From assembly GCA_036172245.1 (NCBI GenBank), contig JAYWIR010000007.1, positions 124,001-188,000 of the forward strand: 64,000 nucleotides of DNA. The letters are read 5' to 3'. A program made the translations under genes and the position numbers. Numbering within the stretch: position 1 is the stretch's first letter; the number at the start of each line of letters is the position of its first letter. The notes under the pieces were generated by a model. That model was given only the letters and a program-made list of their open reading frames with translations. It was not told the origin of the DNA and did not search any database. The DNA comes from Raillietiella orientalis. Lineage: Eukaryota. Of the stretch, positions 1,421 to 36,400 are shown one piece after another.

Positions 1421-1432
1421 CGTTCACATGAA

Positions 1433-1860
1433 GGAAACAATCAATGAGATAATGGTGAAATATTGTGAGGAAGGAATGCTACTGGAAAAAGAGAATGACC
1501 ACAGCAGCACGCCAAAGTCAGGAAAGCGAATGCTTGGAGGGAGGTACAAGTGAGACAGAGAAAAAGGTGGGCAAAGACGCCAATCCGAGGAAAAAATAGC
1601 CAACCCCCCGAGATAGAAAAAGAAACGTGTAAAATTCCCTTGAGAGTAATGCTTTCCTTCCTGTCGTCGGCCAGGAGTCTACAGGTTCATATCAACGTCA
1701 TGTAGAGCCAACATAAGAGAAGGATCACGAGGATAATCGCGCGTGACGACATCGTTTGCTTACAAGAAACTCATGAAAGGGGACAAAACATCAGCCTGGA
1801 ACTGGAATGGCAATCAAACGCCAGAATCTGTGATGAGGCCTCTGGAACAGAATGAATGGA
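1433..1860 (+). mobile_element. Family A LINE fragment (ORF1 end / APE start) at the duplication breakpoint
   Basis: Encodes RIIARDDIVCLQETHERGQNISLELEW at ~1729-1809; duplicate of 30023-30450. Confidence 0.75.
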
Positions 1861-2649
1861 CAATGCTCCTTCGAAGGCATCCCGCAGTATCCAGGAAAGG
1901 AAATCACCAAGTAGCAGCCAACAGGGATGATGGGTCATCACTCGGAAGATGCAAAATGCGAAGCCCCCAGGGGGCTTGAGCGAGTTGCCTGAGGAGCTCC
2001 CAAAGCGAGGTGCAGAACAACGGCCGCGCAGTCGTTTCTATCACCCTGGACAACGGAGGACGCAACCTGCAGCCGGGCTCGAGAACCCTGCGCTCCAAGA
2101 CCCCGCCTCAGAGACCGCAAGCACGCCCGCTCACTTCTCCGGAAACCGAACATCCAGCGTCCTTGACAGGCGACGCTCCTGAACGGGGGCGCCAACGACG
2201 AGACGCCCGCCCCCACGCCGCAGTACCGACAGCCGCGGCGCCGACGGCGACATTGCGGCTGCTGGGAAGATTTCCGGATTCCTGCGGAAGAGCAGAAGAT
2301 CCTGCGCGCTCACCCGAGATCTGTTCGCCGGATGAGTGCGGATGGGGGCTGCAGGCCACCCCTTCTTTCCGCCGGGAACTTTCCGCAACGCGAGTGTTCG
2401 TAGCGACCGACCGGTGGCGTGGCTGCCCGCCCGGCGCCGTTGCTAGGCAGGGAAGAACGAGGCGAACCGTGATCGCCCGCAACTTCCGGAGGAATGAGGG
2501 GAGACCTCCATTGAACGCAGTCAAATTTCAGGCGGATTTTCTCAGCGCAGCCATCGCGACACCAGAAGCGGTGCTGCCGAGAGCAATCCACCCTTCCCGG
2601 CGGTCACCTCAGAGAGGGTCAATGTCACCATCTGCACACCTCCGTCGGC

Positions 2650-4200
2650 TAAACTACTTCGGGTCAGTTTCATCCCATTTTGAAGCTCGAGGGGCAATAC
2701 TCCGGATGCTCATGTCACCACTTCGGTGGGAGGAAGAGGTTGCTGAAAGAGTCGGAGGCGAACTGACCAAAGAGGGAGCAGCAAGCACGAAGAGAGATTC
2801 GTTGCTGCTCCCGTCCTCCCACAGGGACGCCACAGCTCGCGATGCCCCACCGGGAGCAGAGACGGAAAGGTGGCTCTCCTTCCTTCCGCGCCCAGTACAG
2901 CAGGCCTCTTCCCCAACGGTTTCTCAGCTGTCTTCCCTCTGGAAAGACATCTCGAACTTCCGTGAGAGAAGAACCCATTCAGATGGGCTGCTTAGCAAGC
3001 GCACCTTACGGATCGCACGCTGCCCACGCTGGCGCCTTGACCCCAGAGCGAGGGGACCGCGGTGGGAGGTGAAACCAATGCCGCAGGCATTACAAAAAAA
3101 AAAGGAACGACCGTGTGATCCGGAAAACGAAAAGAAAGGCAACAGCGAGAGGAAGAACCACCATTGTCCGCGACCAGACCCTTCGACCGCATCTGTCCCG
3201 AAAAAGCAGATGGGAGAAGAGCGCTCGCCACTGTCGCTGCGCTTGCAAGCCACCCCACGCGTGGTCGACGCCGGAGGCGCTCTGCAATCGCTGCGAGACT
3301 CCAGCAAGCTAAGGCATTCCGCGGATGCCGCATCCTCCTGCATTAAACATGAGCTGCGAACCCTCCCTCGGCTTCCCACCGTGGTCCCCGCCATGACGAC
3401 GCAACGAAATAGCCTAGAATTCCAAAGGCGGGTGGCACACGGCCCTCAGGCTGCCCAAACAACGGCTTCGCCACATGCATGAGTAGCAGCTTCAATCCTC
3501 GCCGCCGGAAGCGGGAAGATGACGACCTCCGCCGCCTCGCCGCCTCATTTCCTTGTCCACGGGTCGGAGCCGTGGCGGAGTCGAATCGACTGGCCACGGC
3601 AGGATGGACCAGCGGGCCACGACACGTGCTAGCTTCTCCTGAGAGGACAGGTAACAAAGCTCTGCCCTACGACGATAGGTAAAAAAAGTCCCCCGGCAAG
3701 AGGACAAGTAAACAAGACACTCCGAGCTAGCTGCCCTCGCCTCGAAAATGAGTTCGCCCAAGAAGCTCAACCACGAAACAGTGGACATGGCCGCAAGCGT
3801 AGGGGGACTGCGGATGAGCTCACGCTGCTAAGCAGCGTGTATCGTCGGTCGGCAGGGATGTCTCCTGGCGAAGACTTCCGCTGCGCCACTACCCGAAGCC
3901 ACACGTCTTTGCCGGTGACTTTTCCAAGATCTCCGAGGGCCTTCCCTCGACGCCGCCTATAAGGTTGCAGGAAGAACTCAGATCGCTGGATGTGCAAAAG
4001 CCAGGCGTTCGCACACACTCTGAGCGAGACCGAACCAATAGCAGCGGAGGTTCGAAGCATCCAGCCCGCGGAGGTTAAGGAAAAGCAAACAAAGAAACGG
4101 TCCACGCACCTCAGATACCATTTTGAGGGCTGATTCCACCTCAGGGAAGCCTCAGAAGGTGCAGTTCTTTACGACCACCCAATACAGCTCACCGTGACGT
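2650..4200 (+). mobile_element. Highly decayed I/Jockey-like LINE (ORF1 knuckle region plus APE); duplicate at 31240-32790
   Basis: Degenerate motifs in the expected order across frames: YSRPLPQRFLSCLPSGKTSRT (knuckle-like), SFN..VGAVAESN, LSSVYRR, HVFAGDFS, LYDHPIQLTV. Confidence 0.45.
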
Positions 4201-5365
4201 CCGCTGAACGAAAGACACCCTGGCTTGGGACATGTACTCGAACGCCTCATCGCTTTGCCGAAAAGACACTGAGCATGCGACTCCCCTTAGTTTCCATGCC
4301 ATCGGAGGAACGGCCAGGAATCACTCGGAAGCACTCGGTCGCCTCAGCTTCTGGCCTCCATCAACAGTTAGCCACACGGCTCACGTCCATCCACGCTGTG
4401 AATCGCCAGACCTGGAGACTGCAGTAGGTTGAAGGCGCACGGAAGGCGCAGCATTCGCGGGACACCAAACACGTCCGAGGATAGCAACTCCCGTGCCACC
4501 TGCGAAGAGAAAGACAGCTCTTCTGCTTCGGTTCCATGTGGTTCCATGGCTACAGACATGTTGAAAAAACAAATCGATGAAAAGTACGTTGGAGCAGGTG
4601 ATGGAGAAGGAGGTACATTTGTCTGCATGGATGCACGAGGCGTTCCCAAGAACTCCAAGGAAACACTGACACCGTCGGCTGCGATTGATACGATAAATGC
4701 TGTACAGAAGAGTGGTTCTCTCCCTGACATTCAAGTGACAGCCACAAACAGCACTCCAAGGAGCCGTTACAGAGCTACAAGGATAGCTCACTCATACATT
4801 GCACATCGGACAGAAGTACAAAGAAGATGGTCGGCATGAAAATGAAAAATTCTGGACTGAAATTCCGAGCATGAGATGCCGTCAGTTGTCCTTGCAACGG
4901 CTGACGATGCTGCAGAAACGGAATCTTCAATGTCCGGTCAAAGTGTTGTCCTGGTTGATACGGAAGAGCTCGTGGTAGTCAGTGTGGTCACGTCTTTTAG
5001 ACAGGATCAAAAACGTACGCAAAGCAAATCGGGAAAAGCAGAACGTCAGCAAAGCCGAAGATCAATCAACAAGCAAGTAGACGCAGTCATCCAGAATAAG
5101 GCATACTTTCTCGGAGATTCCGGAAATGCTCAAAGTGGTGGAACAAGGGAAAGGCAATGAAACAAAAGTCCTCCAGGCGGGTTTACGAACAATCAGGAGG
5201 GACGAAGAGAGCGATTGGCACGCAATATAGAAGGCAAGAAATTCACAAAAGAAAAGGGAGGGGACTGACAGGATTACTTCTGTAAGGGGCGTGGCTCCTT
5301 CTCCTGAATCTTCTGCTGCCTCCTCGCGGATTACTGAAAGAAAGCGGGCATACCATGCTGCACTC
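3965..5365 (+). repeat. Internal ~1.4 kb module, copy A (also at 9759-11185, 32555-33955, 38364-39690)
   Basis: The same sequence (MATDMLKKQIDEKY.. and MPSVVLATADD.. ORFs) recurs four times; period ~5.8 kb within each large duplicate. Confidence 0.92.
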
Positions 5366-6150
5366 CTCCAAAGGACGACTGATGCGCGGAGAACATCTCG
5401 TCGCTAAAGCACTGAATATGGGGCGGCGGACACCTCGAAGATGGCGCGCTATGCAATTCGCCGTGGCGGCTGCCGCGCCATAGAGAAGCCCATGCGTGCA
5501 AAGTGGCGTAACGTGCCCTCCGGGAACCCCACAAACAGCAATGACGCCAACCTCGGTCGCGATCCACCGAGGGCACGGCGGCCCGTCAGTAGGCTTGCGA
5601 GCGACTCGATCGCCCTGCACCAGGAATGGATGCCCTTGCTTTGGAAAAGAGGTGCTGCAGTCGCCCTTCCATCGAAAACCACGGTGCATTAAGAGCTTCA
5701 TCTGATGAGGGTGCACCGAAGCGTCCACACAAAAGACAGAGACCGCCGAGCAGTTCTCGGTACCCGCGGTTCCTTCCCTCACCACGCGCATTCACCTTCC
5801 CGGAGCTGCTCCTGCTCCTGACCACCGCAATACTTTACGAAAGAAGATATCCGAAAAGGATGTCGAGTAGGAGGAATCGTCCTCATCGTGAAAGCTACGA
5901 AGGAAATCCATCTTCGCAGCCATCAACTCAAGGGATTTCCTATGGTGCTTCCATTCCATCAAGATCGGACGCGCCAGTGTCGATCAGCATATTCTTTCAC
6001 AACTGCAAGATGGCGGCTTCACCTGTTTAGATGCGCGTTGGAAGCACCACCCAGCAATTACGGCAAGGTTGCACGCGCGCATTCCTGAAAAGATGGGCCT
6101 CGTGTCCACCATTCGAAGCGACTATCATAGGTCTCGGGGCAGTTGCACAC
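5330..6150 (-). mobile_element. Highly decayed Ty3/Gypsy gag-PR-RT remnant; duplicate at 33920-34740
   Basis: Minus strand, in order: RFEWWTRGPSFQEC (CCHC spacing), MLIDTGAS (aspartic protease), VFCVD..ALNA, FPEGTLRHFARMGFSMA, CFSDEM (YxDD position). Confidence 0.5.
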
Positions 6151-7827
6151 GTCAACACAGCAGTCCTCGCTTTCAGCAACACTTTTGTCGTCCAACACGA
6201 ACCAACTAAATACTGCTGCCTCTTACTCTTCCGAAAAGGACACGGCGGTAGATCTGCACGGCGATGTAATGGCAGTCTTTGTGGTCACGGGAATGCTCGC
6301 CGGGAGCAGATGACCGTCATTTCCGTTTCCGCCGACTTCGCCCCTCTCCACCCTCCGAGCACTCCCCTTAACGCCGCTGCGGTTCTTCGCACGTCGTTTT
6401 GCGCCTCCCTTGCGCGTTGCCTATTCGATCTTGCAGCTGCCTCCTAGGATGGACTCCGAGACGCCACACAGCGTACGTGGTTAGAAGTGGAAAACTGACG
6501 ACAACGGAGAACTTCGCACTTCCGCATTCGTTCTTGGAAAATCGCCAAGCCGTTTGGCTGCTTCCTGGACAGCATCCGCGTGCCGACAGTTTTACAAGCA
6601 GGAGAGGAAAAACGAGCACCCTTCGCAGGCATTCTTTATTTAGACACCATTTCGTTTCGAAAAGGACGCAGGACCAGCATCCCCCAGCTGGAACAATATC
6701 TCTTTTCGTTCTCGCCGATACGGGGGGAATTCCCGGAAGCGCCGATAGACGGAACCTTCAGCGTTCGTCGTCCAGTCGCTTCTTTCCAAGTAGCAGTTCC
6801 GACTTGACCTCTTCCAGAAGACCTCGCACCTTCCGTTCGAGTTCCGAGTCGCGGAAAGGATCGAGTTGCAGCATCTCCAAGCAACGTTTCAGATCAGCAA
6901 CGTACGTCTTCAGCGTGGCTGGCTACAAGAGACCCAGTTAACAGCAGCCGCTCCTTCAAGACCGTTGGCAGTTGCCCAGCACACCGAGGCAGTGTTTTGG
7001 AATCGCAAACGCGGCTCAAGGCGTTGTCAGCGACTCGCAGGATCCGGATCGACATTGTGGCATGGAATACCACGTCAGAGTGACGTGCACCGCTTCAAGC
7101 GATCATCACGCAATGGCGAGTACACTCTGGAGATGGTGTCTTTGAGAAGAGTCCGTAGGAGGCACACGATGCCGCGAGGAACGCCTTTGGGCTGAGCGAA
7201 CCCGCAGCTCGCGCCTACGCATTTCTGGGGAGCATCGGACGCCATCAACTCGCTGCTGCCCCCGTGCATCACTTTCCAGGCGTGTGCGTCACGCTTCGGA
7301 CGACACAGCACTGAACTGTTGATGTCCCCCGTCCATTTCAACTTCGCAAGAGGAGGAGCCTTTGCTTGCAACGGAACAGCAACGAAAGCCATTAAAAGAA
7401 TGAGTGCAGAGGAAATGCAGGAAGGTTCCTTGCAGCCCTTCCCATTCATCATTGCATCGTCTGCTGCAGAGAATGACCCGCACGCGCATGCAAGGAGGAG
7501 CGGGAAAACAAAATGGAAGAATCTATACGAACCTTTGCCTTCGGATGGGTCCTGAACCGAAACTTCCGTGTCTTTTGGCTCCAGATTCTCCTTTCCAGGA
7601 AGATGACTTCGTATCGTAATTTGGGATAGAATTGCATGCATCCTACGAGAAAGAACTGTCAAGAAATCTCTGTGTCACCTGCGGAGTAACCGTTGAAGAG
7701 GGGTCATTGCGACAAGCAGTCGCCAAGATCCCCTTCCCGCCCAGCAATCACGTGGACGCTGGTCAGCTTTGGCACTCTCACGTATCGTCGCTAACCGCGT
7801 TCCACGCGGGCATTCACGCATGTTCGT

Positions 7828-9309
7828 CTACATCGGCCCCTTCGAGCCACATCCTTTGCCACACCACGGAGAGAGGAAACGTGGACACAGAATGCAGGGC
7901 CTCCAGCAAAGTGGCCAATGTGACCGAGCAGTTGTTCTCGTCAAGATACCTGATTTGACGATCTTCCATGCGTTGAGCAGCCTCGAGGTGTGTCGGTGGG
8001 CGGCTTCGAGCTCTTCCAAGCTGAGCGGCTGTGATCCGTCCAAACAAAAGTATGCATCCTTCAGTTTTTCATAGCACAGAAGAAGAACGTAAAAATTAGG
8101 GTGGACCACTGTTTGTACGTGGCCAACGAAGTCTTCCAGCTCCTTAATCTTCTTCATACACACGGCGTTGAACACGGAAGAATTGCGTGGAGGCTGTTTT
8201 TCCACGAACAGAGCTTTGAGCATCATCCAGGATATGCCAATGTCCTCATAGACTCTCATGACAAACTGAAAATGTACGCATCGCTTGCACACCTCGCACA
8301 TCCATTCATCGGTACTTCGCATGGGGTCCGAGGGGATCAGGAACCCTGAGCGACACTTTGGACACTTGACGGCGCCAACGTAGGAGCCGAGCTCCGTTGG
8401 ATCCAAGCAGCGCGCACACTGGCACGCAATGCCTATGCCATTCTGCATGAGTTCCTGCCGAAGCCCCGTGGGCATCAGCGGATGTGCGTAGCCCAACTTC
8501 AGATTACTGTTCTTCGGCACGTCGACGGAGCAGCGGAAGACGCCTTTGTAGTCTTCGTCCAGGTAAAGTACGCAGTTATCGCAGCAGTTTGGTTCGAAGC
8601 ACGACCCGGTCAAAAACAAGAGAGAGAGATCTTCATCGAAATTCGGGTGCACGTACTGTATCTGATGAGTGAAGAAGATTTTCCATAGATGAAGCACCGT
8701 CTTTGCGTCGAATTGTTCGCGACTTAAGAACGAGTACACCAAATGCAAGAGAAGCGGGAAATATTCCATCAGCGTCGGTACATCATGGGCTCGCAGCGAC
8801 AGCAGCTTCTCCCAAGTGTCTGGAGCTCGGCTCTTCACAGCGAGCATGCGAAACAGAGGTATCAGCAAGGGATACAAAACTTCCAAGAAATCGAGAACAG
8901 GAGTGTTGCACGAAACTCCAAGTAGCGATAACAGCTGGCACTCCGGCTGGTGATGCGGACTCCGCTGACACCCTTCGGAGCACAGGGGCCAGCTGCACTT
9001 TGGGCACGGATGCCAGCCGGAGGGCAGGCTCCGGAAGCATCCCAAGCAGTAGATGTGTGCAAGGGAATTGTTAGGATTCACGCACATCAATAGAGGTTCT
9101 TCGATGAAAAGCAGGGTTCCTGCTTTCAGGCTCCGAGTAGCCACCAGATGTGGCCCCAGGTCGTCGGTCACCTCCACTCGGTACTTCCGGCAAACCTTCC
9201 GTTGAACCTTCCAATCGGCTCGCTGATGTTCTTCGCCGCAGTACCATCTTTCCAGGCAGGAGCTGCAGCGCGACGAAGCGTTCTGTTTGCAGACCACGCA
9301 GCGATTCAT
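7828..9309 (-). CDS. MYND + SET domain protein (arthropod SmydA/msta-like), paralog 1
   Basis: 493-aa ORF. N-terminal MYND (CVVC..CSSC..YCGEEHQRADWKVQRKVC), SET-N LGPHLVATRSLKAG, internal MYND-like CLGC..CPKC..LCSEGC..HHQPEC, post-SET CQCARCLDPTELGS, CPKC..WMCEVC. Probable 5'-UTR intron 9332-9617. Confidence 0.9.
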   Translation of the reverse strand: MNRCVVCKQNASSRCSSCLERWYCGEEHQRADWKVQRKVCRKYRVEVTDDLGPHLVATRSLKAGTLLFIEEPLLMCVNPNNSLAHIYCLGCFRSLPSGWHPCPKCSWPLCSEGCQRSPHHQPECQLLSLLGVSCNTPVLDFLEVLYPLLIPLFRMLAVKSRAPDTWEKLLSLRAHDVPTLMEYFPLLLHLVYSFLSREQFDAKTVLHLWKIFFTHQIQYVHPNFDEDLSLLFLTGSCFEPNCCDNCVLYLDEDYKGVFRCSVDVPKNSNLKLGYAHPLMPTGLRQELMQNGIGIACQCARCLDPTELGSYVGAVKCPKCRSGFLIPSDPMRSTDEWMCEVCKRCVHFQFVMRVYEDIGISWMMLKALFVEKQPPRNSSVFNAVCMKKIKELEDFVGHVQTVVHPNFYVLLLCYEKLKDAYFCLDGSQPLSLEELEAAHRHTSRLLNAWKIVKSGILTRTTARSHWPLCWRPCILCPRFLSPWCGKGCGSKGPM

Positions 9310-9758
9310 CGGTTCGTTTCCAGCCTCACACCTGGAAGAAAACCGTCAAACGGAGAACTAGGAAGGATGCAGTGGGGTCGGAAGCTGCAAGGCGGATGAG
9401 CCGCCGTCCGATGTTTGCCGTTCCTTACGACGTCTCGAGGGTTGCGTGCGAAGGCTTCAGCGTTTGGCAACGGATGAGGATGGCAGCAAGAGGAGGACGA
9501 AGAAGGACGTCTTCGCACTCGAGACGCCAAACGCAGACAATTCACGAAAGAGAGAAAAAGAAAAAAAAACGCACAGCTTGCGCGACAAATGCGTTCGAGA
9601 CGAATCTGTGGACTTACATGTTTACCTCACAGGATGAGCATCGTCCTCCTTTCAGCGACCACTTGTTGACCGCTTTGAATTCGTCCTGCTGTACTTCTAG
9701 CGCACTACAGTCGGCGACGATGGACGAGAGGGCTTCTGAGCCACCGAACTGGGAAACA

Positions 9759-11185
9759 GCAGGAAGAACGCAAATCGCTGCACGTTGGGAAGAGAAGCGT
9801 TCTCACACACCGTTAGCGGAAACGAACGAACAGCCGACGAGGTTGGAGGCTTCCGGCGCCGAGGCGTTCAAGGAAAAGCAAACAAGCAAAGCGTCCATGC
9901 TCCCCTGCCCCATTTTCAGGGCTGAGGTGACCTCGGAGAAGCCTCAGCGGGTGCAGCTCTACAGCACCAGCGGATCCCGCTTCCCGTGACGTACTCTGGA
10001 CGAGGGATACACTCTATCCTCTATTCCATGGGCCATCTAGGCCATGGACATGTCCCTGAACGGCCCATCGCTCTGCCTCGCAGACACCGAGCATGCGTGA
10101 CTCCCTCGTTTCCATGCCATCCGAGGATCACCCAAGAATCACTCGAAGACCGTGGGTGACTTCGGTTTCCGGTCTCCATCCACAGGTCGGCACACGGCTC
10201 ACGTCCATCCACGCTGTGAATCGCCAGACCTGGAGACTGCAATAGGTTGGAGGCGTACTGAAGGCGCAACCCGCGTGCGACACCAAGACAGGGACCTCCA
10301 AAGACAGGGACGTGCGTGATATCTGCGAAGAGAAAGACAGCTCTTCTGCTTCGGTTCCATGTGGTGCCATGGCTACAGACGTGTTGAAAAAACAAATCGA
10401 TGAAAAGTACGTTGGAGCAGGTGGTGGAGAAGAAGGTACATTTGTCTGCATGGATGGACGAGGCGTTCCCAAGAACTCCAAGGAAACACTGACACCGTCG
10501 GCTGCGATTGATACGATAAATGCTGTACAGAAGAGTGGTTCTCTCCCTGACATTCAAGTGACAGCCACAAACAGCACTCCAAGGAGCCGTTACAGAGCTA
10601 CAAGGATAGCTCACTCATACATTGCACATCGGACAGAAGTACAAAGAAGATGGTCGGCATGAAAATGAAAAATTCTGGACTGAAACTCCGAGCATGAGAT
10701 GCCGTCAGTTGTCCTTGCAACGGCTGACGATGCTGCAGAAACGGAATCTTCAATGTCCGGTCAGAGTGTTGTCCTGGTTGATACGGAAGAGCTCGTGGTA
10801 GTCAGTGTGGTCACGTCTTTTAGACAGGATCAAAAACGGACGCAAAGCAAATCGGGAAAAGCAGAACGTCAGCAAAGCCGAAGATCAATCAACAAGCAAG
10901 TAGACGCAGTCATCCAGAATAAGGCATACTTTCTCGGAGATTCCGGAAATGCTCAAAGTGGTGGAACAAGGGAAAGGCAATGAAACAAAAGTCCTCCAGG
11001 CGGGTTTACGAACAATCAGGAGGGACGAAGAGAGCGATTGGCACGAAATCCAGGATCCAAGCAATACAAAGAAGATAGGCGGAGGGAACTGGTGTCACTT
11101 CTTTAAGGGCCATTGCTCCTTCTCCTGAGTCTTCTGCTGCCTTCTCGGGGATTCCAAAAGCAAGCGGGGACACCATGCTGCAGTC
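9759..11185 (+). repeat. Internal module, copy B
   Basis: Near-identical to copy A over ~10320-11045, clearly diverged at both ends. Confidence 0.9.
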
Positions 11186-11189
11186 CAGC

Positions 11190-11640
11190 GGGAACGGCGC
11201 GGTCAGTTCGGATTCCAGGGTCCCAGGCTGCTGCGTGGTCGTTGGAGGTGAAAACGAAGATTCACGAGGCTGGGAGAAGGTGGGATGGAACTGCCACGAA
11301 GGAACACGGCAGCGGATAGGGAAGCGGGTCGGCCGCTTGGACGGATGCCGCGAGATCGGGTACTAGGCGGGATCCCGCAAGATGACCCTGGTTGGCCTGC
11401 AAACATTGAGTGCGGCACCCTAGTGGCTCAAACCGGATGCCCCCGATGAGTTGTCGAGAAATGGAGAGTCGACCTTCGGGTCCTTCCAGGAATCCAGGAG
11501 TGAGGAAGAGTTCCCCTTCCGGTTGTGCAAAGGAGAGCGGACTTCCCAGTGTCCGCTGTCCTTTGTGTGGGAGATCCCTCCGGAGAGCATAAGGAAGGAG
11601 TTTCCCTCCGGGGTTCCTCTTTTCCGACTTTGCGAGAAGA
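11190..11640 (+). repeat. Rep-A copy
   Basis: Same conserved blocks as 1035-1420 and 15850-16510. Confidence 0.85.
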
Positions 11641-13084
11641 CTTGGCCTCGCGAATCCGGATCGTGCCGCAACGACTGCGCTTGCGCCGTTGCCTCTGGAA
11701 GCGTCGTTGCACATCGCACCTTCCGCTTGCGAACAGATTGAGAAAGGAAGTTTCCGGGAGTTTGCAGGGTTCGGAAAGCGTCGCGCGCGATTCCCGCCGC
11801 AGGACATTCGGGCGCCTCAGCCGGGGAACCTTCCAGCGATGCGGCGCGGCCGAGGGCGACCCCTCCCGCATCGGCCGCCGCCCCCCCCCTCTCGCGTTCC
11901 TTCCTCTGGAAGGGTCTTCTTCGCTTCCTGGAAGTGCCTGCCTGACCTCCCTGTCTTCGACGTGTGAAGAGTCGAGCAGCGTTGGCGGTAGTAGGTGCGT
12001 ATGCTGTCTCTTCAGAGGGCCTCGCGGCTCGTCCACTCCAGAATTCCCGGGGTGTTTTCTTCCCATTACCGCCGCGCCGGCGAAGGACCCTCACGTGTGA
12101 GGAAGCCAAGCATAGCATCAGGGAAACACGCGCGGTGCACCAGGAACGAGCTTGGTGACGTGTCGTTTAGTCGATACCGCAGGGTTCCGTGGCAGTGGCG
12201 GCTGCCACGCAGCTTCGCGTTTCTGCAGGAGTCGGTTGCTAAGGTCCTCAATCCCTCACCTTTTCCCGTGAATGACGTCTTCCTTTCACTTGCACAAACA
12301 AGGAAGCAATCCGGTGTCCGAGACGAGGTGAGTCCGAATTTGATTATCTTTTCAATATCGGGATGCACAGTCTAATTCAGCGTTAATCCTTGTCCCTCTC
12401 CGCCCTCCCTGTCAAGGACAAAGGAACGCATCCTGCGTTTAGCGCACCCTTCCTGAGAAAACGAGCGTTTCGTTCTCGCAAGGCGGGACGCCGCCTTCGC
12501 GAATTTGATGGAAATGGAGGTGCGGACGGGGAAAGCCTTTCGCTACGCTGTTAAAAGGGGGTGCTCAAGGGGACGATGGTAGGGACTGGCGGGGTCGGAT
12601 GAGCTGTCCGTTCGCAAGGGGAGGGTTTTCGTGACATTTTCCAGCCGATCGGGAACTGCGTCATCTCCAGCCAGCAAGCAGGGGAATGAGGCGCCAAGCA
12701 CTGCTGGTGGGTTACGCTGGCGATCAACGGGGGAAGCGGAGCGCCATTTCGAGTGTTGCCTCGTGGTGGCTCCTGCGTAGCCGAAACGTTTCCGCTCCGG
12801 CTTCTTTGATGCAGGTGACCGGTCAGCGCTCACCGTATCCTATCCATCAATCGCTGCTCCGTTTGGTAATGGATCCACTAAAAATCGCACGAGAGCGGAT
12901 GCAGAATTGCGATTTGTGGTTTCCGATTCGTGGACGTGCAGCTTGGTGCCGGAAAAGTGATCCGTTTCCAGCGTTTCATTTGAGAGCGGTAGACGGGAAA
13001 GAAGTTAGGGGGGATGGTCGCACGTTGCCACCTCTTTCCAGGTTTATTTGGACCTTCTCGCTTTCCCTGATTTTCTCCGAGTAG

Positions 13085-13500
13085 TGCCCCTCCCGGGGCA
13101 CCCGAAGGGAACCATTCGCTTATTCACCCCGAAGGGTACCCACCATGGGGGGGGCTGACCTATCATTTTTTCTCTGAAGGGAACCCGAAAATGATGCACT
13201 CCTTGTTGCTACTCCGAAGACGCTTCAAAGTTTCTCTGAAGGGAACTTCTGACACTCTGGAGAGGTGCCAGCCATCCAGCTCCATGGTACGCCACGGTAG
13301 GGCACCATTTTCACAACCAGAGGAAGGACCCGGAAAGGCTCCTTGACTCCTGGAAAAACTCCGGAGCATGGACTTCCACTCCCACACAGTCAGCGTGGGC
13401 GTCCGGTTTCCGGTTTCCTCCGGTGCCGCATCCGAATAGGCCAACCAGCGTCATCTCTCGGGCGAACCCGGAATCCAGGACGCGTCCCTTTTTTCTGGGT
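13085..13500 (-). repeat. Rep-A copy (reverse)
   Basis: The reverse complement contains GAGATGACGCTGGTTGGCC..TGCGGCACC..GGTTGTGAAAA..CCATGGAGC..ACCTCTCCAGAGT. Confidence 0.75.
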
Positions 13501-13895
13501 CGGTCCTTCCCCAGGCGGGATATTCGAACTCGCCACGCTTGGTACGAAGCTCGGAGGGCGCAGCCCCACGGTCACCAACGCGGGCGTCTTCTTACAAAGG
13601 GGCTTTTCCCCGGAATCGCGCTCTCCCGAGGAATGGTTTTTGCGGTTGTTCGTGGAGGGTGCACTGAAGAGTTCATTCGCGCTGTGGGTAACTTATAATA
13701 GCGACGTGATGGCCAACAGCTCCGTCATGCCGTCGGTCGACGCTCATGTGCTAAAGGCTCTTCCGTTGTTTCTATGCACCGTCTTGAGGCAACAGGATGT
13801 GACTCATGGGTGACTGATGAATGGGTCGGGAGTTTGTTCCTAAGGGAACACTGATGCTGGATGCGAAAGCCCTATCCCTTGATGACGACATAAGG

Positions 13896-15118
13896 AAAAA
13901 ACACATCGTCCTCTGCAACAAGTGGTATATCGTGTTGGTAAGCAAAGTCGATTAAGGTTTCCTCGAGCTCCACCTCTTTACTCATGCCATGACGCTGCAG
14001 TTCAACATATGAGTGACCACTGAATTCTGAAAGCGGTTTTTCAATTCTCTCTTTATCTTGCCCCAATAACAGTGGAGTCAACATTCCTTCGTGTCCACCG
14101 GTAAAAGCAATTAGACGTGAACTTGACCCTACAAGGGTAAAGTGACGTCATATACGACACATAAGGAACTAAAGCGTGCCATGACTCTTTGCCATGGTTC
14201 CGCGTTGCCGTTCCAGCTACCTCTTACTCAGCCTCCCGCATGCCTGCAGCCGCGATTGAGTGCACATCGCTTTCGTTCTGTGTCGAACACGACACCACGT
14301 TCCCTTTCACGTTGCATATGAAAATTCGCACCCGTGGCCTCTCACAATGAAATTTTCACACGAGATGAGCGGGAAGGGTTGACTGGACGCCGTGAAAAAG
14401 GGGGAACTAATTGGGAAGAGTTTTTGTCTGTCGAAGACAAAGATTTGGATGACGGAAATACGGAAGCAGGGAGCGAACAAGAGGAGGAATCTTCAGCTGG
14501 CGGAAGAGATGTGGATGGCCTTTGAGAGTGTTTTTTGTGGAATGTAAGACGGGGCTGGGACAAATTCGCGCGTGGGGCTCACCTTGCCAACAGCCTTGGA
14601 AATCCAAATTCTAAAGTTGTTCCCAGGAAAATGTTCCTTCGAAATTTAGGGTACCAGCTTGTAACACCTCATGCGGGACGACGGTTACGTTGCAGAAATT
14701 TGTCCCGTTCTTTGCGAAATTGGATTTTTTGTCTGCACTAAATAAAGAAGATCTGAGGTTCCGAGATGTTCCGCAAGAACCGCCCACAAGCGCTGCGAAG
14801 CGCGCCCACCTTCCGCCAGCCGGAGAGGAAGGGCAAAGCGTTTCTGCCGCCGAAAAGTCGTGTGCCCCCAACACCGAAGGCCTTCATGCTGTGAATATCC
14901 AAATAACTTATCGAATCATTCGTAAAGATAACTGAAATTCATCGACAAAATAAAATGTTTATGTAAAAGTATCAGGTTCTTGTACTTCCATTTGGAGTCC
15001 CATATGACAACACCACCTAACCATTTTCACACACTAAATTTTCACGTCACCCTTCGAGGGTTAAATTTAATAGCTCTTCAAAATCAACGTAAGGAATGCC
15101 ACTGTTACTTTTGCGCTT
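13896..15118 (-). pseudogene. dnaE: Bacterial DNA polymerase III alpha (PHP domain) fragment, Wolbachia/Rickettsiales-like, split by piggyBac (parts 15061-15118 and 13896-14126)
   Basis: Joined translation KRKSNSGIPYVDFEELLNLSSRLIAFTGGHEGMLTPLLLGQDKERIEKPLSEFSGHSYVELQRHGMSKEVELEETLIDFAYQHDIPLVAEDDVFF carries the DnaE motifs LIAxTGG, YVELQRHG and IPLVA(TN)DV. AT-richer than the flanks. Confidence 0.85.
14127..15060 (+). mobile_element. Internally deleted piggyBac-family DNA transposon (934 bp)
   Basis: Flanked by TTGA (14123-14126) and TTAA (15061-15064). Imperfect TIRs CCCTACAAGGGT / CCCTCGAAGGGT (rc). Acidic N-terminal remnant (14334-14525), C-terminal remnant RKMFLRNLGYQLVTPHAGRRL and Cys-rich VCPQHRRPSCCEY. 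Catalytic core absent. Confidence 0.8.
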
Positions 15119-15849
15119 TCCAGGGGACTCGCCCACCAAAGTGACCCAATTAGTGTGCCCTCGCCCGTGTTTTGCAGCACGGGTACGCTTTGTTCCGAGA
15201 GCCTAGCTGAAATGGGGCACCCCATCATTAGTTGCGTTCCAAATAAGTGAGACGTTGCGCTCGCTGCTGTACTAATCAGATATCCGGATGCTGCAACCGG
15301 AGCTTTTTCATACATTCTCGTGGAAACCAGAATGTAAGAAGAAAGAGCCAAAATTCTCCCCTTCCCCCCACCGTGAACATAAAGACGGAACGTGGTGAGC
15401 GTTCAAAAAGATAAAAAGAAAAAACAAAAAGAAAAGAAAACGCCAGAAATGCCATCCTGAGGGGAACTCGGGGGAATCTTCTCGTGCATCCTCGCGCGGT
15501 GGGCTCCCGGCGCCAGATTCTTGGAGCGCGCTGGGTTTGCGCGGAGCAGGACTACGGCCTCCCCGTGAACTCGAGGAGCCCCTTGGACGCAGGCCCAGGA
15601 TGGTCGTGCAGAGGGGGCCCTTCGCGGCGAAATGGGCGCTGAAAGAGCCAACTTCACTTTGCGCGCGCGGCGGCGGAAAATTCGCTTTGCCGTCTCTGCG
15701 CGGATGGCGGGGGAGGCAAAGAGAACTCGTGTCCTCGCCCGCGGGCATGCACTGCACCTGGGGCCGTCTGATAGGGCGTAGTACCTGTTGGTGCCCACCT
15801 ACTTCCCCTCGAAAGTCCACTGCATGTGGACCAGGCATTACTCGCGTCG

Positions 15850-16510
15850 GAGGCTGCGTGGCACCACCAGGCGTCGCGGGTTCGAATACTCGGGAAGAAC
15901 AGAATGGGGGTCGCGTCGTGGATTGGAGTTCGTCCCGCGAGATGACGCTGATTGGGCTCCATACGAGTGCGGCACTGGTGGCGGTTCAAACCGGATGCCC
16001 CCGATGAGCGGGCCGCGATTAGGAGTCGACCTTCCGGGGTCGTTCCAGGAAACAGAATCAAGGATTGGGAATTCCCCTCCGGTTGTGCAAAACAGTGGAC
16101 TCCCCATTCGGGGGGGACCCTCCGTCTGGTACCATGGAACCGGTGGATTTATGACACGCATCCAGAGTGTAGAGAAGCGTGCCGCTCCCTTCGGGGAGCG
16201 ACCTTTTGAGAAATTTCGGAAGCGTTCCTTCGGGGTTCTTTTCAGAGGAGTAAACAGGAAGAGGTTCCCTTGAGAGTTCCCTCCGGAGAAGAAATTCCTA
16301 TCAGCGGATCCTTTCTGGATGCTCTTCAGAGAGGAAGAAAATGCAGCGTACCCTTCCGGGGATCCCTCCGAAGAGAATAAGGAAGGAGATTCTCTCCGAG
16401 ATTCTCCTTCGGAGACAACCAGGGTGGAGGGTTCCCTTCGTGGACTCCTCCCCAGGCATGCGAGGAGCGGGACTCCCATATCCGGAGTCCTCCCTGGATT
16501 CCTAGGGAGG
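15850..16510 (+). repeat. Rep-A copy (longest)
   Basis: Conserved core 15935-16170; the 3' part 16210-16505 matches 59490-59740. Confidence 0.85.
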
Positions 16511-28399: not shown

Positions 28400-28760
28400 A
28401 GGAACATCTTCGAGAAAGCGGGGAGTGCGTCGTGGGTTTCGAGTTCCGTTCGCAAGGTGATGCTCATGGGTCCATTCGGGTGCGGCACTGATGGAAGCCG
28501 CTGGAAATCCAAGCATGTCCCCGTTGACTGGCCTGGAGTGGAAGTTGACTCTCCAGGGTCCTTCCAGAATATCAAGCAGCCCTTCAGAGTTCACCTTCGG
28601 TTGTGCAAGCGGAACCGTCCCTCTCCCTCATAGGTACGACCCTCCATTTCATGCCATGGAGCCGGTTGATACCTCTCCAGGGTATGAAGTGGTGCGCTGC
28701 TCCCGTCGGGGAGCGACCTTACAGAAGAATTTGGAAGTCGGAGGGTTGCTCTCCGATCGG
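28400..28760 (+). repeat. Rep-A copy
   Basis: GTGCGGCACTG, GGTCCTTCCAG, CGGTTGTGCAA, CCATGGA, CTCCC..GGGGAGCGACCTT shared with 15960-16210. Confidence 0.75.
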
Positions 28761-28833: not shown

Positions 28834-30450
28834 GTGTTTTGCTTTCACTATTTACTGCGAATGAGCCGGCCACGTCAAAGTCCACTTACGCCCAAGAAAG
28901 CGGGCAAACCAGGTCCCTATAAGGAGGGAGCTATGGTGGGACCATCATCGGAGGCGCCGCAACCGCCGTCTTATGTGGTTGTGGCAGCTGCAGCCCCCAG
29001 TGCGGGGAAAACTGCGGAAGCTAAAACAGTGGTTTCTGAAATAGATAAGGAAAACGAACTGGTACGGAAGGCTGACCCCGAAGTGAAGCAGGTCACCTTC
29101 AAAACCGGGATGCTACATCTCGCCAATGTGCGATATGCTTATGCTGCCTTCCACAAACAAAATGTGGATTTTCAGAAAGTCAAGGCAATCGTCTCCTCAG
29201 AAACAGGGTGGTTCACGCTGTCCACCACGGACCAGGAGGAGCTGCAGGAGCTTTTGATCGAGCAAGCGATCATTTTAAATGGCACCAAATTGCGGGGTCT
29301 CCGGAAGCCGCCCACTACGGCGGTCCATCCCTCCGGGATACACTGCTTTACGGCCAAAAGAACTGTATGGGAGTTTCTCTCCCAATATGGATACGTCCAA
29401 GAGGCTGCTTTCCGCAACCATGTGGAGAAGATCTTCGTAGAAGAAGCAAGAGTGGGAATAAAGTTGTTCATTGACACATAAATTCCAGCCATCACAGCTA
29501 TCGACGAACGTTCGCAAGACATAAAGGTACGGAACCGATTACAACTTACCTTTTGTACAGGATTCAGGGAAATAGGCCTTCGCAATGCTACCATTGCAAA
29601 ATGGAGGGTCACCTTAAGAAGGACTGTGAGAGATACTTCGACAGGCGGGCTGCCAGAGGGCTGACTCGTTTACCGGAGGCGGAAGAGAAAAGGAAGGTTC
29701 CAGGACAGCAGAGGGAGGGTCCATACAGGGCAACCGAAGCGCTACCTACAAAAAAGAACATCCAAGAAAAGAAGCCACAACAAAAAAAGCAGCAGCGGTA
29801 GTCGAAATCTCTATTCGAACTGTAGAGAGGGAACAAGAGGTTCTTGCTACCCAAAACGAAAGGCAGAAGGCCGCAAAGTATTTGCAGGAAGTGGTAATAC
29901 TCGCGGAGAAGGTTCATCCTGACAACACGGGAGTGGAACGTGCGAACCGTGCCAACTCATGCTGGTCTGCAGCATGAAATTCTACACTTTTTAGTAAATG
30001 AGAATTAAAGAAATCAAATGGTGGGAACAATCAATAAGATCATGGCGAAATATTGGCAGGAAGCAATGCTACTGGAAAAAGAGAATGACCACAGCAGCAC
30101 ACCAAAGTCAGGAAAGCGAATGCTTGGAGGGACGTACAAGTGAGTCAGAGAAAAAGGTGAACAAGGACGCCAATCCGAGGAAAAAATAGCCAACCCCCCG
30201 AGATAGAAAAAGAAACGTGTAAAATTCCCTTGAGAGTAATGCTTTCCTTCCTGTCATCGGCCAGGAGTCTACAGGTTCATATCAACGTCATGTAGAGCCA
30301 ACATAAGAGAAGGATCACGAGGATAATCGCGCGTGACGACATCGTTTGCTTACAAGAAACTCATGAAAGGGGACAAAACATCAGCCTGGAACTGGAATGG
30401 CAATCAAACGCCAGAATCTGTGATGAGGCCTCTGGAACAGAATGAATGGA
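28834..30450 (+). mobile_element. Family A LINE remnant: ORF1 plus APE start
   Basis: NVDFQKVKAIVSSETG..ELLIEQ..VWEFLSQYG aligns to ORF1 at ~54640-54900; CYHCKMEGHLKKDC knuckle; DDIVCLQETHERGQNISLELE matches QDIICLQETHQMGQQITLELE. Confidence 0.8.
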
Positions 30451-33400
30451 CAATGCTCCTTCGAAGGCATCCCGCAGTATCCAGGAAAGGAAATCACCAA
30501 GTAGCAGCCAACAGGGATGATGGGTCATCACTCGGAAGATGCAAAATGCGAAGCCCCCAGGGGGCTTGAGCGAGTTGCTTGAGGAGCTCCCAAAGCGAGG
30601 TGCAGAACAACCGCCGCGCAGTCGTTTCTATCGCCCTGGACAACGGAGGACGCAACCTGCAGCCGGGCTCGAGAACCCTGCGCTCCAAGACTCCGCCTTA
30701 GAGACCGCAAGCACGCCCGCTCACTTATACGGAAACCGAACATCCAGCGTCCTTGACAGGCGACGCTCCTGAACGGGGGCGCCAACGACGAGACGCCTGC
30801 CCCCACGCCGCAGCACCGACAGCCGCGGCGCCGACGGCGACATTGCGGCTGCTGGGAAGATTTCCGGATTCCTGCGGAAGAGCAGAAGATCCTGCGCGCT
30901 CACCTGAGATCTGTTCGCCGGATGAGTGCGGATGGGGGCTGCAGGCCACCCCTTCTTTCCGCCGGGAACTTTCCGCAACGCGAGTGTTCGTAGCGACCGA
31001 CCGGTGGCGTGGCTGCCCGCCCGGCGCCGTTGCTAGGCAGGGAAGAACGAGGCGAACCGTGATCGCCCGCAACTTCCGGAGGAATGAAGGGAGACCTCCT
31101 TTGAACGCAGTCAAATTTCAGGCGGATTTTCTCAGCGCAGCCATCGCGACACCAGAAGCGGTGCTGCCGAGAGCAATCCACCCTTCCCGGCGGTCACCTC
31201 AGAGAGGGTCAATGTCACCATCTGCACACCTCCGTCGGCTAAACTACTTCGGGTCAGTTTCATCCCATTTTGAAGCTCGAGGTGCAATACTCCGGATGCT
31301 CATGTCACCACTTCGGTGGGAGGAAGAGGTTGCTGAAAGAGTCGGAGGCGAACTGACCAAAGAGGGAGCAGCAAGCACGAAGAGAGATTCGTTGCTGCTC
31401 CCGTCCTCCCACAGGGACGCCACAGCTCGCGATGCCCCACCGGGAGCAGAGACGGAAAGGTGGCTCTCCTTCCTTCCGCGCCCAGTACAGCAGGCCTCTT
31501 CCCCAACGGTTTCTCAGCTGTCTTCCCTCTGGAAAGACATCTCGAACTTTCGTGAGAGAAGAACCCATTCAGATGGGCTGCTTAGCAAGCGCACCTCACG
31601 GATCGCACGCTGCCCACGCTGGCGCCGTGACCCCAGAGCGAGGGAACCGCGGTGGGAGGTGAAACCAATGCCGCAGGCATTACAAAAAAAAAAGGAACGA
31701 CCGTGTGATCCGGAAAACGAAAAGAAAGGCAACAGCGAGAGGAAGAACCACCATTGTCCGCGACCAGACCCTTCGACCGCATCTGTCCCGAAAAAGCAGA
31801 TGGGAGAAGAGCGCTCGCCACTGTCGCTGCGCTTGCAAGCCACCCCACGCGTGGTCGACGCCGGAGGCGCTCTGCAATCTCTGCGAGACTCCAGCAAGCT
31901 AAGGCATTCCGCGGATGCCGCATCCTCCTGCATTAAACATGAGCTGCGAACCCTCCCTCGGCTTCCCACCGTGGTCCCCGCCATGACGACGCAACGAAAG
32001 AGCCTAGAATTCCAAAGGCGGGTGGCACACGGCCCTCAGGCTGCCCAAACAACGGCTTCGCCACATGCATGAGTAGCGGCTTCAATCCTCGCAGCCGGAA
32101 GCGGGAAGATGACGACCTCCGCCGCCTCGCCGCCTCATTTCCTTGTCCACGGGTCGGAGCCGTGGCGGAGTCGAATCGACTGGCCACGGCAGGATGGACC
32201 AGCGGGCCACGACACGTGCTAGCTTCTCCTGAGAGGACAGGTAACAAAGCTCTGCCCTACGACGATAGGTAAAAAAAGTCCCCCGGAAAGAGGACAAGTA
32301 AACAAGACACTCCGAGCTAGCTGCCCTCGCCTCGAAAATGAGTTCGCCCAAGAAGCTCAACCACGAAACAGTGGACATGGCCGCAAGCGTAGGGGGACTG
32401 CGGATGAGCTCACGCTGCTAAGCAGCGTGTATCGTCGGTCGGCAGGGATGTCTCCTGGCGAAGACTTCCGCTGCGCCACTACCCGAAGCCACACGTCTTT
32501 GCCGGTGACTTTTCCAAGATCTCCGAGGGCCTTCCCTCGACGCCGCCTATAAGGTTGCAGGAAGAACTCAGATCGCTGGATGTGCAAAAGCCAGGCGTTC
32601 GCACACACTCTGAGCGAGACCGAACCAATAGCAGCGGAGGTTCGAAGCATCCAGCCCGCGGAGGTTAAGGAAAAGCAAACAAAGAAACGGTCCACGCACC
32701 TCAGATACCATTTTGAGGGCTGATTCCACCTCAGGGAAGCCTCAGAAGGTGCAGTTCTTTACGACCACCCAATACAGCTCACCGTGACGTCCGCTGAACG
32801 AAAGACACCCTGGCTTGGGACATGTACTCGAACGCCTCATCGCTTTGCCGAAAAGACACTGAGCATGCGACTCCCCTTAGTTTCCATGCCATCGGAGGAA
32901 CAGCCAAGAATCACTCGGAAGCACTCGGTCGCCTCAGCTTCTGGCCTCCATCAACAGTTAGCCACACGGCTCACGTCCATCGTCGCTATGAATCGCTACA
33001 GGGGAGGACTGCAGTAGGTTGAAGGCGCACGGAAGGCGCAGCATTCGCGGGACACCAAAGACGTCCGAGGATAGCAACTCCCGTGCCACCTGCGAAGAGA
33101 AAGACAGCTCTTCTGCTTCGGTTCCATGTGGTTCCATGGCTACAGACATGTTGAAAAAACAAATCGATGAAAAGTACGTTGGAGCAGGTGATGGAGAAGG
33201 AGGTACATTTGTCTGCATGGATGCACGAGGCGTTCCCAAGAACTCCAAGGAAACACTGACACCGTCGGCTGCGATTGATACGATAAATGCTGTACAGAAG
33301 AGTGGTTCTCTCCCTGACATTCAAGTGACAGCCACAAACAGCACTCCAAGGAGCCGTTACAGAGCTACAAGGATAGCTCACTCATACATTGCACATCGGA

Positions 33401-36400
33401 CAGAAGTACAAAGAAGATGGTCGGCATGAAAATGAAAAATTCTGGACTGAAATTCCGAGCATGAGATGCCGTCAGTTGTCCTTGCAACGGCTGACGATGC
33501 TGCAGAAACGGAATCTTCAATGTCCGGTCAAAGTGTTGTCCTGGTTGATACGGAAGAGCTCGTGGTAGTCAGTGTGGTCACGTCTTTTAGACAGGATCAA
33601 AAACGGACGCAAAGCAAATCGGGAAAAGCAGAACGTCAGCAAAGCCGAAGATCAATCAACAAGCAAGTAGACGCAGTCATCCAGAATAAGGCATACTTTC
33701 TCGGAGATTCCGGAAATGCTCAAAGTGGTGGAACAAGGGAAAGGCAATGAAACAAAAGTCCTCCAGGCGGGTTTACGAACAATCAGGAGGGACGAAGAGA
33801 GCGATTGGCACGCAATATAGAAGGCAAGAAATTCACAAAAGAAAAGGGAGGGGACTGACAGGATTACTTCTGTAAGGGGCGTGGCTCCTTCTCCTGAATC
33901 TTCTGCTGCCTCCTCGCGGATTACTGAAAGAAAGCGGGCATACCATGCTGCACTCCTCCAAAGGACGACTGATGCGCGGAGAACATCTCGTCGCTAAAGC
34001 ACTGAATATGGGGCGGCGGACACCTCGAAGATGGCGCGCTATGCAATTCGCCGTGGCGGCTGCCGCGCCATAGAGAAGCCCATGCGTGCAAAGTGGCGTA
34101 ACGTGCCCTCCGGGAACCCCACAAACAGCAATGACGCCAACCTCGGTCGCGATCCACCGAGGGCACGGCGGCCCGTCAGTAGGCTTGCGAGCGACTCGAT
34201 CGCCCTGCACCAGGAATGGATGCCCTTGCTTTGGAAAAGAGGTGCTGCAGTCGCCCTTCCATCGAAAACCACGGTGCATTAAGAGCTTCATCTGATGAGG
34301 GTGCACCGAAGCGTCCACACAAAAGACAGAGACCGCCGAGCAGTTCTCGGTACCCGCGGTTCCTTCCCTCACCACGCGCATTCACCTTCCCGGAGCTGCT
34401 CCTGCTCCTGACCACCGCAATACTTTACGAAAGAAGATATCCGAAAAGGATGTCGAGTAGGAGGAATCGTCCTCATCGTGAAAGCTACGAAGGAAATCCA
34501 TCTTCGCAGCCATCAACTCAAGGGATTTCCTATGGTGCTTCCATTCCATCAAGATCGGACGCGCCAGTGTCGATCAGCATATTCTTTCACAACTGCAAGA
34601 TGGCGGCTTCACCTGTTTAGATGCGCGTTGGAAGCACCACCCAGCAATTACGGCAAGGTTGCACGCGCGCATTCCTGAAAAGATGGGCCTCGTGTCCACC
34701 ATTCGAAGCGACTATCATAGGTCTCGGGGCAGTTGCACACGTCAACACAGCAGTCCTCGCTTTCAGCAACACTTTTGTCGTCCAACACGAACCAACTAAA
34801 TACTGCTGCCTCTTACTCTTCCGAAAAGGACACGGCGGTAGATCTGCACGGCGATGTAATGGCAGTCTTTGTGGTCACGGGAATGCTCGCCGGGAGCAGA
34901 TGACCGTCATTTCCGTTTCCGCCGACTTCGCCCCTCTCCACCCTCCGAGCACTCCCCTTAACGCCGCTGCGGTTCTTCGCACGTCGTTTTGCGCCTCCCT
35001 TGCGCGTTGCCTATTCGATCTTGCAGCTGCCTCCTAGGATGGACTCCGAGACGCCACACAGCGTACGTGGTTAGAAGTGGAAAACTGACGACAACGGAGA
35101 ACTTCGCACTTCCGCATTCGTTCTTGGAAAATCGCCAAGCCGTTTGGCTGCTTCCTGGACAGCATCCGCGTGCCGACAGTTTTACAAGCAGGAGAGGAAA
35201 AACGAGCACCCTTCGCAGGCATTCTTTATTTAGACACCATTTCGTTTCGAAAAGGACGCAGGACCAGCATCCCCCAGCTGGAACAATATCTCTTTTCGTT
35301 CTCGCCGATACGGAGGGAATTCCCGGAAGCGGCGATAGACGGAACCTTCAGCGTTCGTCGTCCAGTCGCTTCTTTCCAAGTAGCAGTTCCGACTTGACCT
35401 CTTCCAGAAGACCTCGCACCTTCCGTTCGAGTTCCGAGTCGCGGAAAGGATCGAGTTGCAGCATCTCCAAGCAACGTTTCAGATCAGCAACGTACGTCTT
35501 CAGCGTGGCTGGCTACAAGAGACCCAGTTAACAGCAGCCGCTCCTTCAAGACCGTTGGCAGTTGCCCAGCACACCGAGGCAGTGTTTTGGAATCGCAAAC
35601 GCGGCTCAAGGCGTTGTCAGCGACTCGCAGGATCCGGATCGACATTGTGGCATGGAATACCACGTCAGAGTGAGGTGCACCGCTTCAAGCGATCATCACG
35701 CAATGGCGAGTACACTCTGGAGATGGTGTCTTTGAGAAGAGTCCGTAGGAGGCACACGATGCCGCGAGGAACGCCTTTGGGCTGAGCGAACCCGCAGCTC
35801 GCGCCTACGCATTTCTGGGGAGCATCGGACGCCATCAACTCGCTGCTGCCCCCGTGCATCACTTTCCAGGCGTGTGCGTCACGCTTCGGACGACACAGCA
35901 CTGAACTGTTGATGTCCCCCGTCCATTTCAAATTCGCAAGAGGAGGAGCCTTTGCTTGCAACGGGACAGCAACGAAAGCCATTAAAAGAATGAGTGCAGA
36001 GGAAATGCAGGAAGGTTCTTTGCAGCCCTTCCCATTCATCATTCCATCGTCTGCTGCAGAGAATGACGCGCACGCGCATGCAAGGAGGGGAGGGAAATCA
36101 AAATGGAAGAATCTATACGAACCTTTGCCTTCGGATGGGTCCTGAACCGAAACTTCCGTGTCTTTTGGCTCCAGATTCTCCTTTCCAGTAAGATGACTTC
36201 GTATCGTAATTTGGGATAGAATTGCATGCATCCTACGAAAAGGAACCGTCAAGAAATCGCTCAATGACCTTCCGATTTCCCGTTGAAGACGGGTCAGTGC
36301 GACAAGCAGTCGCCAACAACCCCTTCCCTGCCGAACAGTCACTTCGACGTTGGTCTACTTTGGCACTCGGACGTACCGTCGCTGACGACGTCCCATACGG

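Follow-up and report, generated by a model that had tools for sequence, protein, structure and literature searches.

The locus examined here raises the question of whether a bacterial gene fragment on the minus strand resides in the chromosome of a host and, if so, whether it had arrived there before a transposon split it. The window, i.e., the whole stretch of DNA that was analysed, comprises 64,000 nucleotides, and the initial annotation described positions 13896..15118 as an endosymbiont dnaE fragment in the host chromosome, split at TTAA by a piggyBac transposon and rejoining in frame. Our analysis favours, with a probability of approximately 85%, a small and old transfer of Wolbachia DNA into the nucleus (nuwt) of a eukaryote, probably an arthropod, which was later split by a transposon. 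A longer extent of the dnaE homology, a frameshifting deletion of 7 nt, and a fused piece of an antiporter gene go beyond the previous description and are new here.

The minus strand encodes KRKSNSGIPYVDFEELLN at 15118-15065, with TTAA next to it, and ..SSRLIAFTGGHEGML..YVELQRHG..IPLVAEDDVFF at 14122-13896; this reading matches the peptides noted earlier. Their proposed identity as DnaE was confirmed by profile and protein searches. The 91-aa open reading frame (ORF) at 13872-14147 matched the NCBIfam profile of DNA polymerase III alpha (NF004226) with an E value of 1e-9 over positions 128-210 of 1146. When the same ORF was used in a search of 5.8 billion proteins, 36 of the 37 matches were Wolbachia-type DnaE proteins with 60–74% identity and E values down to 1.5e-28. 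The sources of these proteins, where given, were mostly named Wolbachia and included endosymbionts of Atemnus politus, Ctenocephalides felis, Cimex lectularius, Mansonella, and Brugia. The one remaining match, from Undibacter, showed 42% identity. In the Pfam search of this ORF the fragment went unrecognised (best E value of 0.19), and solved structures gave weak DnaE matches only, the best being 2hpi_A (E value of 0.019).

A tblastn search with full-length Wolbachia DnaE placed residues 57-78 at 15240-15175 in one frame, residues 81-117 at 15175-15065 in another frame (59–69% identity), and residues 115-195 at 14135-13893 (74% identity). According to the alignments, 7 nt are deleted near 15175-15180, which explains why codons 57-78 are in a frame of their own, and the fragment is 409 nt long compared with 416 nt in Wolbachia. 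The 5' part, which carries this deletion and corresponds approximately to codons 57-117, occupies 15061..15240 (minus strand); in addition to the tblastn matches in two frames and the alignments, it was delimited by blastn, with 75–77% identity to Wolbachia over 15061-15240 and 74–84% over 15061-15176. The 3' part, approximately codons 118-195 in the region of the PHP domain, occupies 13894..14122 (minus strand) and was delimited by tblastn and by blastn to 31 Wolbachia-genus loci at 72–82% identity. The dnaE homology has sharp ends at 13894 and 15240. The sequence beyond 13894 showed no similarity to the remainder of dnaE, and tblastn with seven full-length DnaE proteins revealed no other significant DnaE segments in the window. 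The whole span thus comprises codons ~57–195, that is, ~140 of the ~1110–1140 residues of a protein that in its full length has PHP, polymerase core, and C-terminal domains, and its frame is shifted once and interrupted. The interval described in the initial annotation therefore held the core of the dnaE fragment, but its outer limit did not stand, as the homology continues to 15240 and is followed by the antiporter piece to ~15360.

Two other assignments of sequence in this area were considered and rejected. The segment 15047-15202 (minus strand), with the peptide ...VTLVGESPGKRKSNSGIPYV..., gave weak matches to family-4 uracil-DNA glycosylases (E values of 0.005–0.12). These matches were due to chance, since residues 81-117 of Wolbachia DnaE align with this stretch at the 59–69% identity given above. 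The segment 15241-15400 was considered as a decayed N-terminus of dnaE; its local alignments did not score above those of shuffled sequences, the ungapped identity at colinear offsets was 22–35%, and an antiporter fragment was found there instead.

Removal of 14127-15060 together with one copy of the 4-bp site, performed by a script, yielded exactly 95 codons from KRKSNS to DDVFF, which reproduced the stop-free frame claimed earlier; these codons sit within a stretch of 130 codons free of stops. The contiguity of the rejoined peptide with DnaE, which had been set as a check, was also observed: DnaE residues 81-117 and 115-195 were recovered on the two sides of the insert, and the rejoined DNA aligned with the Wolbachia dnaE locus without a gap over the junction, where Wolbachia reads ...AATTTAAGT.... 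In the blastn comparison, 13894-14124 and 15061-15240 mapped to adjoining coordinates in 31 Wolbachia-genus loci, and the two pieces overlapped by 2–4 nt on the Wolbachia side, as predicted by a 4-bp target duplication. One copy of this duplication, TTAA, lies at 15061..15064; the other, at 14123..14126, reads TTGA on the plus strand (TCAA on the minus strand) and is one base off TTAA. The Wolbachia 4-mer at the insertion site is TTAA in 26 of 30 sequences, TCAA in three, and TTTA in one, in agreement with the split at TTAA that had been proposed.

The inserted block (14127..15060) is 934 bp long and has a GC content of 48%. It starts with CCCTACAAGGGT and ends, as the reverse complement, with CCCTCGAAGGGT, so that its termini are CCCT...AGGG; on the minus strand, the block opens with CCCTCGAAGGGTGACGT and closes with ...ACGTCACTTTACCCTTGTAGGG, after which TCAA follows. 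The 12-bp terminal inverted repeats (14127-14138 and 15049-15060) agree at 10 of their 12 positions, and just internal to both ends there is a GTGACGT motif. Each end motif occurred once in the window and never in 100 shuffles. According to the published description of piggyBac (PMC5861402), TTAA is the insertion site of the transposon, duplicates of TTAA flank it, and its left end begins with CCCTAGAAAG..., printed as CCCTAGAAAGATAG...; when compared with the first 10 bases of this left end, each end of the block matched at 8.

We read the 934-bp block as a putative non-autonomous piggyBac-like element on the basis of ~12 bp of its ends and the 4-bp site. Two traits of the piggyBac superfamily, the TTAA duplication and the inverted-repeat ends with 5'-CCC / GGG-3', were found. 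The DDD transposase (Pfam DDE_Tnp_1_7) was found neither in the 19 ORFs of the element nor in 49 scanned ORFs of the window, which contains 225 ORFs of at least 110 aa in total, and the element was therefore filed only as non-autonomous and piggyBac-like. The original piggyBac claim thus held for the CCC ends and the TTAA duplication; of a transposase, the 19 ORFs contained no trace. This lack of a transposase remnant, with none of the 19 ORFs of at least 40 aa giving a Pfam match at E ≤ 0.1, is also what makes one consider a different origin, namely a DNA transposon of another family or a bacterial insertion sequence acquired before the transfer, which came to lie at TTAA by chance. The block is, moreover, present in a single copy in the window, where a second copy was sought and nothing beyond a 35-nt match at chance level was found, and its inverted repeats are short and imperfect. 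Such an origin is nevertheless unlikely. The combination of a 4-bp TTAA duplication with 5'-CCCT...AGGG-3' ends is diagnostic of piggyBac-like elements (PMC5861402), and both ends share 8 of 10 bases with the piggyBac left end printed there. A bacterial source is opposed by the absence of a match to the block in one complete Wolbachia genome (best blastn E value of 0.96) and among the best matches listed for 60 Wolbachia genomes, for each of which five candidates were scored.

As a piggyBac-like element, the block resembles piggyBac (IFP2) of Trichoplusia ni in its duplicated TTAA target, its CCCT ends, and the 8 of 10 left-end bases, and the ACGT-containing motif inside each end loosely resembles the transposase-bound TGCGT(c/a)AA repeats (PMC5861402). 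Unlike IFP2, the element is 934 bp long, has no transposase, and would be mobile only with the help of an autonomous relative, none of which was seen in the window. A literature search combining Wolbachia and piggyBac gave only false positives (“piggybacking”).

The order of events proposed in the initial annotation, transfer first and transposon later, is sound. It follows from the fact that the gene is cut exactly at a Wolbachia TTAA, one kept in 26 of 30 Wolbachia sequences, by a piggyBac-type element with a 4-bp duplication. The 934-bp non-autonomous piggyBac-like element would thus have entered the TTAA inside dnaE after integration of the bacterial DNA, duplicating the site, and one of the duplicates would since have mutated to TCAA (minus strand).

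Comparison of the window with 60 Wolbachia-genus genomes demonstrated that 15239-15355 matches a second Wolbachia locus with 72–79% DNA identity, and the match was confirmed by tblastx against one complete Wolbachia genome. The Wolbachia gene at this locus encodes a 488-aa protein of the Proton_antipo_M family; its ORF scored 792.7 bits against NF009305 (NCBIfam equivalog “putative monovalent cation/H+ antiporter subunit D,” cutoff 700). From the DNA matches, the tblastx result, and the junction alignment, a fragment of the gene for cation/H+ antiporter subunit D of ~40 codons (~120 nt) was delimited at 15237..~15360 (minus strand). The dnaE and antiporter homologies meet at GGAA (15237-15240), a 4-nt microhomology common to both parents, and the antiporter piece runs in frame into dnaE within a 111-codon ORF at 15067-15402 (minus strand). 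In all 21 genomes listing both genes on contig C1, the distance between them ranged from 15 kb to several hundred kb, and their relative orientation differed among genomes. Since this distance was at least 15 kb in 21 of 21 genomes, the joint represents a rearrangement unseen in any sampled Wolbachia. No further Wolbachia similarity adjoining the locus was detected by tblastx, and DNA searches with the 60 genomes gave no Wolbachia similarity in 40001-64000.

The locus would thus combine ~120 nt of the antiporter gene and ~410 nt of dnaE, which are not adjacent in the Wolbachia chromosome and which are arranged head to tail here, both on the minus strand. The GGAA microhomology fits end-joining of separate fragments after breakage of the bacterial DNA, or the loss of internal sequence from an insert that was originally larger, and the joint may have arisen in either way.

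The donor was originally described as Wolbachia/Rickettsiales-like, which was borne out and can be narrowed: judging from sequence similarity, the donor genus is Wolbachia. The dnaE fragment matched all 60 Wolbachia-genus genomes with amino acid identities of 49–73%, compared with at most 56% for 38 other genomes of the family. At the DNA level, identity to Wolbachia loci was 72–82% over 229–231 nt, and six of the Wolbachia-genus loci translate identically to named Wolbachia proteins. A search for related loci returned one close relative and 78 distant alphaproteobacteria.

In maximum-likelihood trees based on dnaE and on the concatenated pieces (538 columns, 23 rows), the fragment formed a branch of 0.36–0.48 substitutions per site at an unsupported base and had a deviant composition. 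The AU tests rejected no grouping at the supergroup level, with p-AU values of 0.146–0.453 for four dnaE groupings and 0.24–0.37 for four clades in the concatenated analysis; a fifth dnaE clade grouping was already a branch of the best tree, with support of 26/0. The raw identity of both pieces was highest to the clade with the strains of Cimex lectularius and Mansonella ozzardi, which we take to be supergroup F.

Decay of the dnaE fragment is clear. Its best DNA identity to 30 Wolbachia dnaE sequences was 80%, and the median among those Wolbachia sequences was 88%. Lineage-specific changes were scored at 315 columns with at least 90% agreement among the 30 sequences, and the fragment differed at 53 of these conserved sites (41 AT>GC, 6 GC>AT, and 6 other changes). 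The 53 differences were distributed over codon positions 1, 2, and 3 as 14, 19, and 20, compared with 61, 41, and 107 for the variation within Wolbachia. In the antiporter piece, 27 of 105 conserved sites had changed, with AT>GC accounting for 18 of these. The GC content of the fragment was 46.2% versus 36.2% in Wolbachia, with 55% in the window and 57–61% in the immediate flanks. The dN/dS ratio of the fragment to its eight closest sequences was 0.32–0.37, and 423 Wolbachia pairs gave a median of 0.11 and a 90th percentile of 0.17. Among the 65 codons invariant in all 30 Wolbachia sequences, 17 were changed in the fragment, including T>E and N>D. The suspicion of decay that the TND->EDD change had raised was thereby vindicated, and to it are added the frameshift, the truncation at both ends, the AT>GC drift, the dN/dS ratio, and the 17 changed codons. 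Together with the fusion to a distant gene and the transposon, these features mark the fragment as not part of a living bacterial genome.

After integration, the Wolbachia DNA would have evolved as a non-functional host sequence, accumulating truncations, the frameshift, and replacements of invariant codons, and its GC content would have drifted from ~36% to ~46% in surroundings of 55% GC. The strong AT>GC drift suggests long residence in the chromosome. Because the fragment sits on a very long branch at the base of the tree without support, part of its divergence could stem from an unsampled donor lineage and not from decay in the host.

The open frame raises the possibility that the host has co-opted the Wolbachia-derived sequence and expresses it within one of its own genes or RNAs. 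Once rejoined, the frame runs for 130 codons without a stop, and the 111-codon ORF spans the antiporter piece into dnaE. Neutral evolution was simulated 5000 times with changes of the same number and spectrum, and 24% of the simulations were stop-free over the 114 codons tested, so the open 130-codon frame is no evidence of constraint. The frame is, in addition, broken by the 934-bp element, the dN/dS ratio is threefold that among Wolbachia, changes affect 17 of the 65 invariant codons, and only ~140 of ~1100 DnaE residues are present. Co-option is accordingly very improbable. Nothing at the locus suggests function, and it presumably has none.

The joins between the Wolbachia pieces and their surroundings are taken from the assembly, which leaves room for an assembly chimera or contamination, with reads of a living Wolbachia misjoined to host sequence. 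We regard this as extremely improbable. The fragment is at most 80% identical to any of the 30 Wolbachia dnaE sequences, shows the 41:6 bias towards AT>GC changes, carries a frameshift, is truncated at both ends, and is fused to a gene that lies at least 15 kb away in 21 of 21 genomes. It is also split by an element absent from Wolbachia, and a living bacterium is incompatible with its only dnaE being in such a state. Nuclear residence of the Wolbachia pieces is thus suggested by the assembly and by the pattern of decay.

The region 12500-16500 was also compared with the one public sequencing run listed (X1, Logan contigs, taken as DNA by guess, with a word share of 0.07); no RNA run was among the matches. 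One 151-nt contig of this run was identical to 14208-14358 within the element, and diverged repeat matches were found at ~13170-13570 and ~15850-16500; no contig of this run covered the Wolbachia pieces or spanned any junction.

The surroundings of the locus are eukaryotic and probably arthropod. Their assembly context consists of flanks with 57–61% GC, dispersed repeats, a LINE reverse transcriptase, and SmydA-like ORFs; no tRNA genes or Rfam matches were found in the window. The best clue to the kind of host is offered by two intronless MYND-finger ORFs of ~500 aa at 7831-9345 and 36524-38032 (both minus strand; E values of 4e-7 and 1.5e-9). Their nearest protein-atlas clusters were arthropod SmydA-8/msta SET-domain proteins with a score of 0.96, which is a lead and not proof.

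Other repeats were noted in the window. Remains of a LINE-type (non-LTR) retrotransposon at 56077-58148 (plus strand) comprise a weak endonuclease match followed by a reverse transcriptase at 56970-58148 (RVT_1, E value of 8e-29), and a second, weaker reverse-transcriptase fragment lies at 49837-50778 (plus strand). Proteins homologous to the LINE reverse transcriptase share only ~30% identity with it and come from scattered taxa, which makes it uninformative on the host. A dispersed repeat family with 67–75% identity is represented by 13348-13543 and 15866-16050, which are inverted relative to each other, and also by 28427-28720, 11373-11548, and 1213-1367. The two inverted copies lie ~350 and ~510 bp outside the Wolbachia pieces, and it was to these stretches that the diverged contigs of run X1 matched.

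The locus most probably belongs to the nuwt phenomenon, which is common and well described, and the finding itself is real and well supported. Nuwts that contain mobile elements of the host have been described in Drosophila ananassae (PMC4299567), where, as is probable in our case, Wolbachia DNA was integrated into the chromosome of an arthropod and was itself then a target for host elements. The D. ananassae nuwts are of large size and recent origin, are nearly identical in sequence to the resident strain, and have received retroelements. In contrast, ~530 nt with at most 80% identity are left here, and the inserted element is of a cut-and-paste, TTAA-specific type. Decayed Wolbachia “genomic fossils” (palaeosymbiosis) have been described in Dictyocaulus viviparus (PMC4046930), which likewise has fragmented, frameshifted Wolbachia genes in nuclear contigs as a record of past infection; that case extends over ~1 Mb, and the nematode and the inserts have similar GC contents. 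Here, on the other hand, the pieces are tiny and mosaic, the genome is GC-rich and probably that of an arthropod, and the composition has clearly drifted. The present locus would represent a clean and internally dated transfer from bacteria to an animal, in which integration of the bacterial piece preceded the arrival of the host transposon. Past infections with Wolbachia can be recognised from such fossils, which also help to tell true insertions from assembly contamination.

Other Wolbachia-like sequence was observed elsewhere in the window. Four decayed copies at 4596-5114, 10387-10937, 33186-33704, and 39045-39542 (plus strand) resemble a Wolbachia nitronate-monooxygenase/FabK-like gene, with DNA identities of 66–70% over 140–300 nt, a 55-nt patch of 80–87% identity, and a protein identity of ~27–29%. 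The DNA similarity is Wolbachia-specific, being present in 53 of 60 genomes of the genus versus one weak match, to another part, in 38 other genomes of the family. The FabK-like piece looks like an older Wolbachia-derived sequence that was copied together with host repeats. It is possible, though we put it forward tentatively and at somewhat less than even odds, that the window records a long or repeated association with Wolbachia in a GC-rich arthropod lineage. If this is true, the transposon insertion and the nested repeats described below would set transfer, decay, transposition, and duplication on a relative time scale, and the window would become a case of palaeosymbiosis if the host is now without Wolbachia or belongs to a group in which Wolbachia is unrecorded.

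Finally, the window contains a 9.7-kb segmental duplication (1424-11088 vs 30014-39692) with 96.5% identity between its copies. Inside each copy there is a 1.4-kb direct repeat (3967-5366 vs 9759-11186) with 85.6% identity, which carries the FabK-like fragment.
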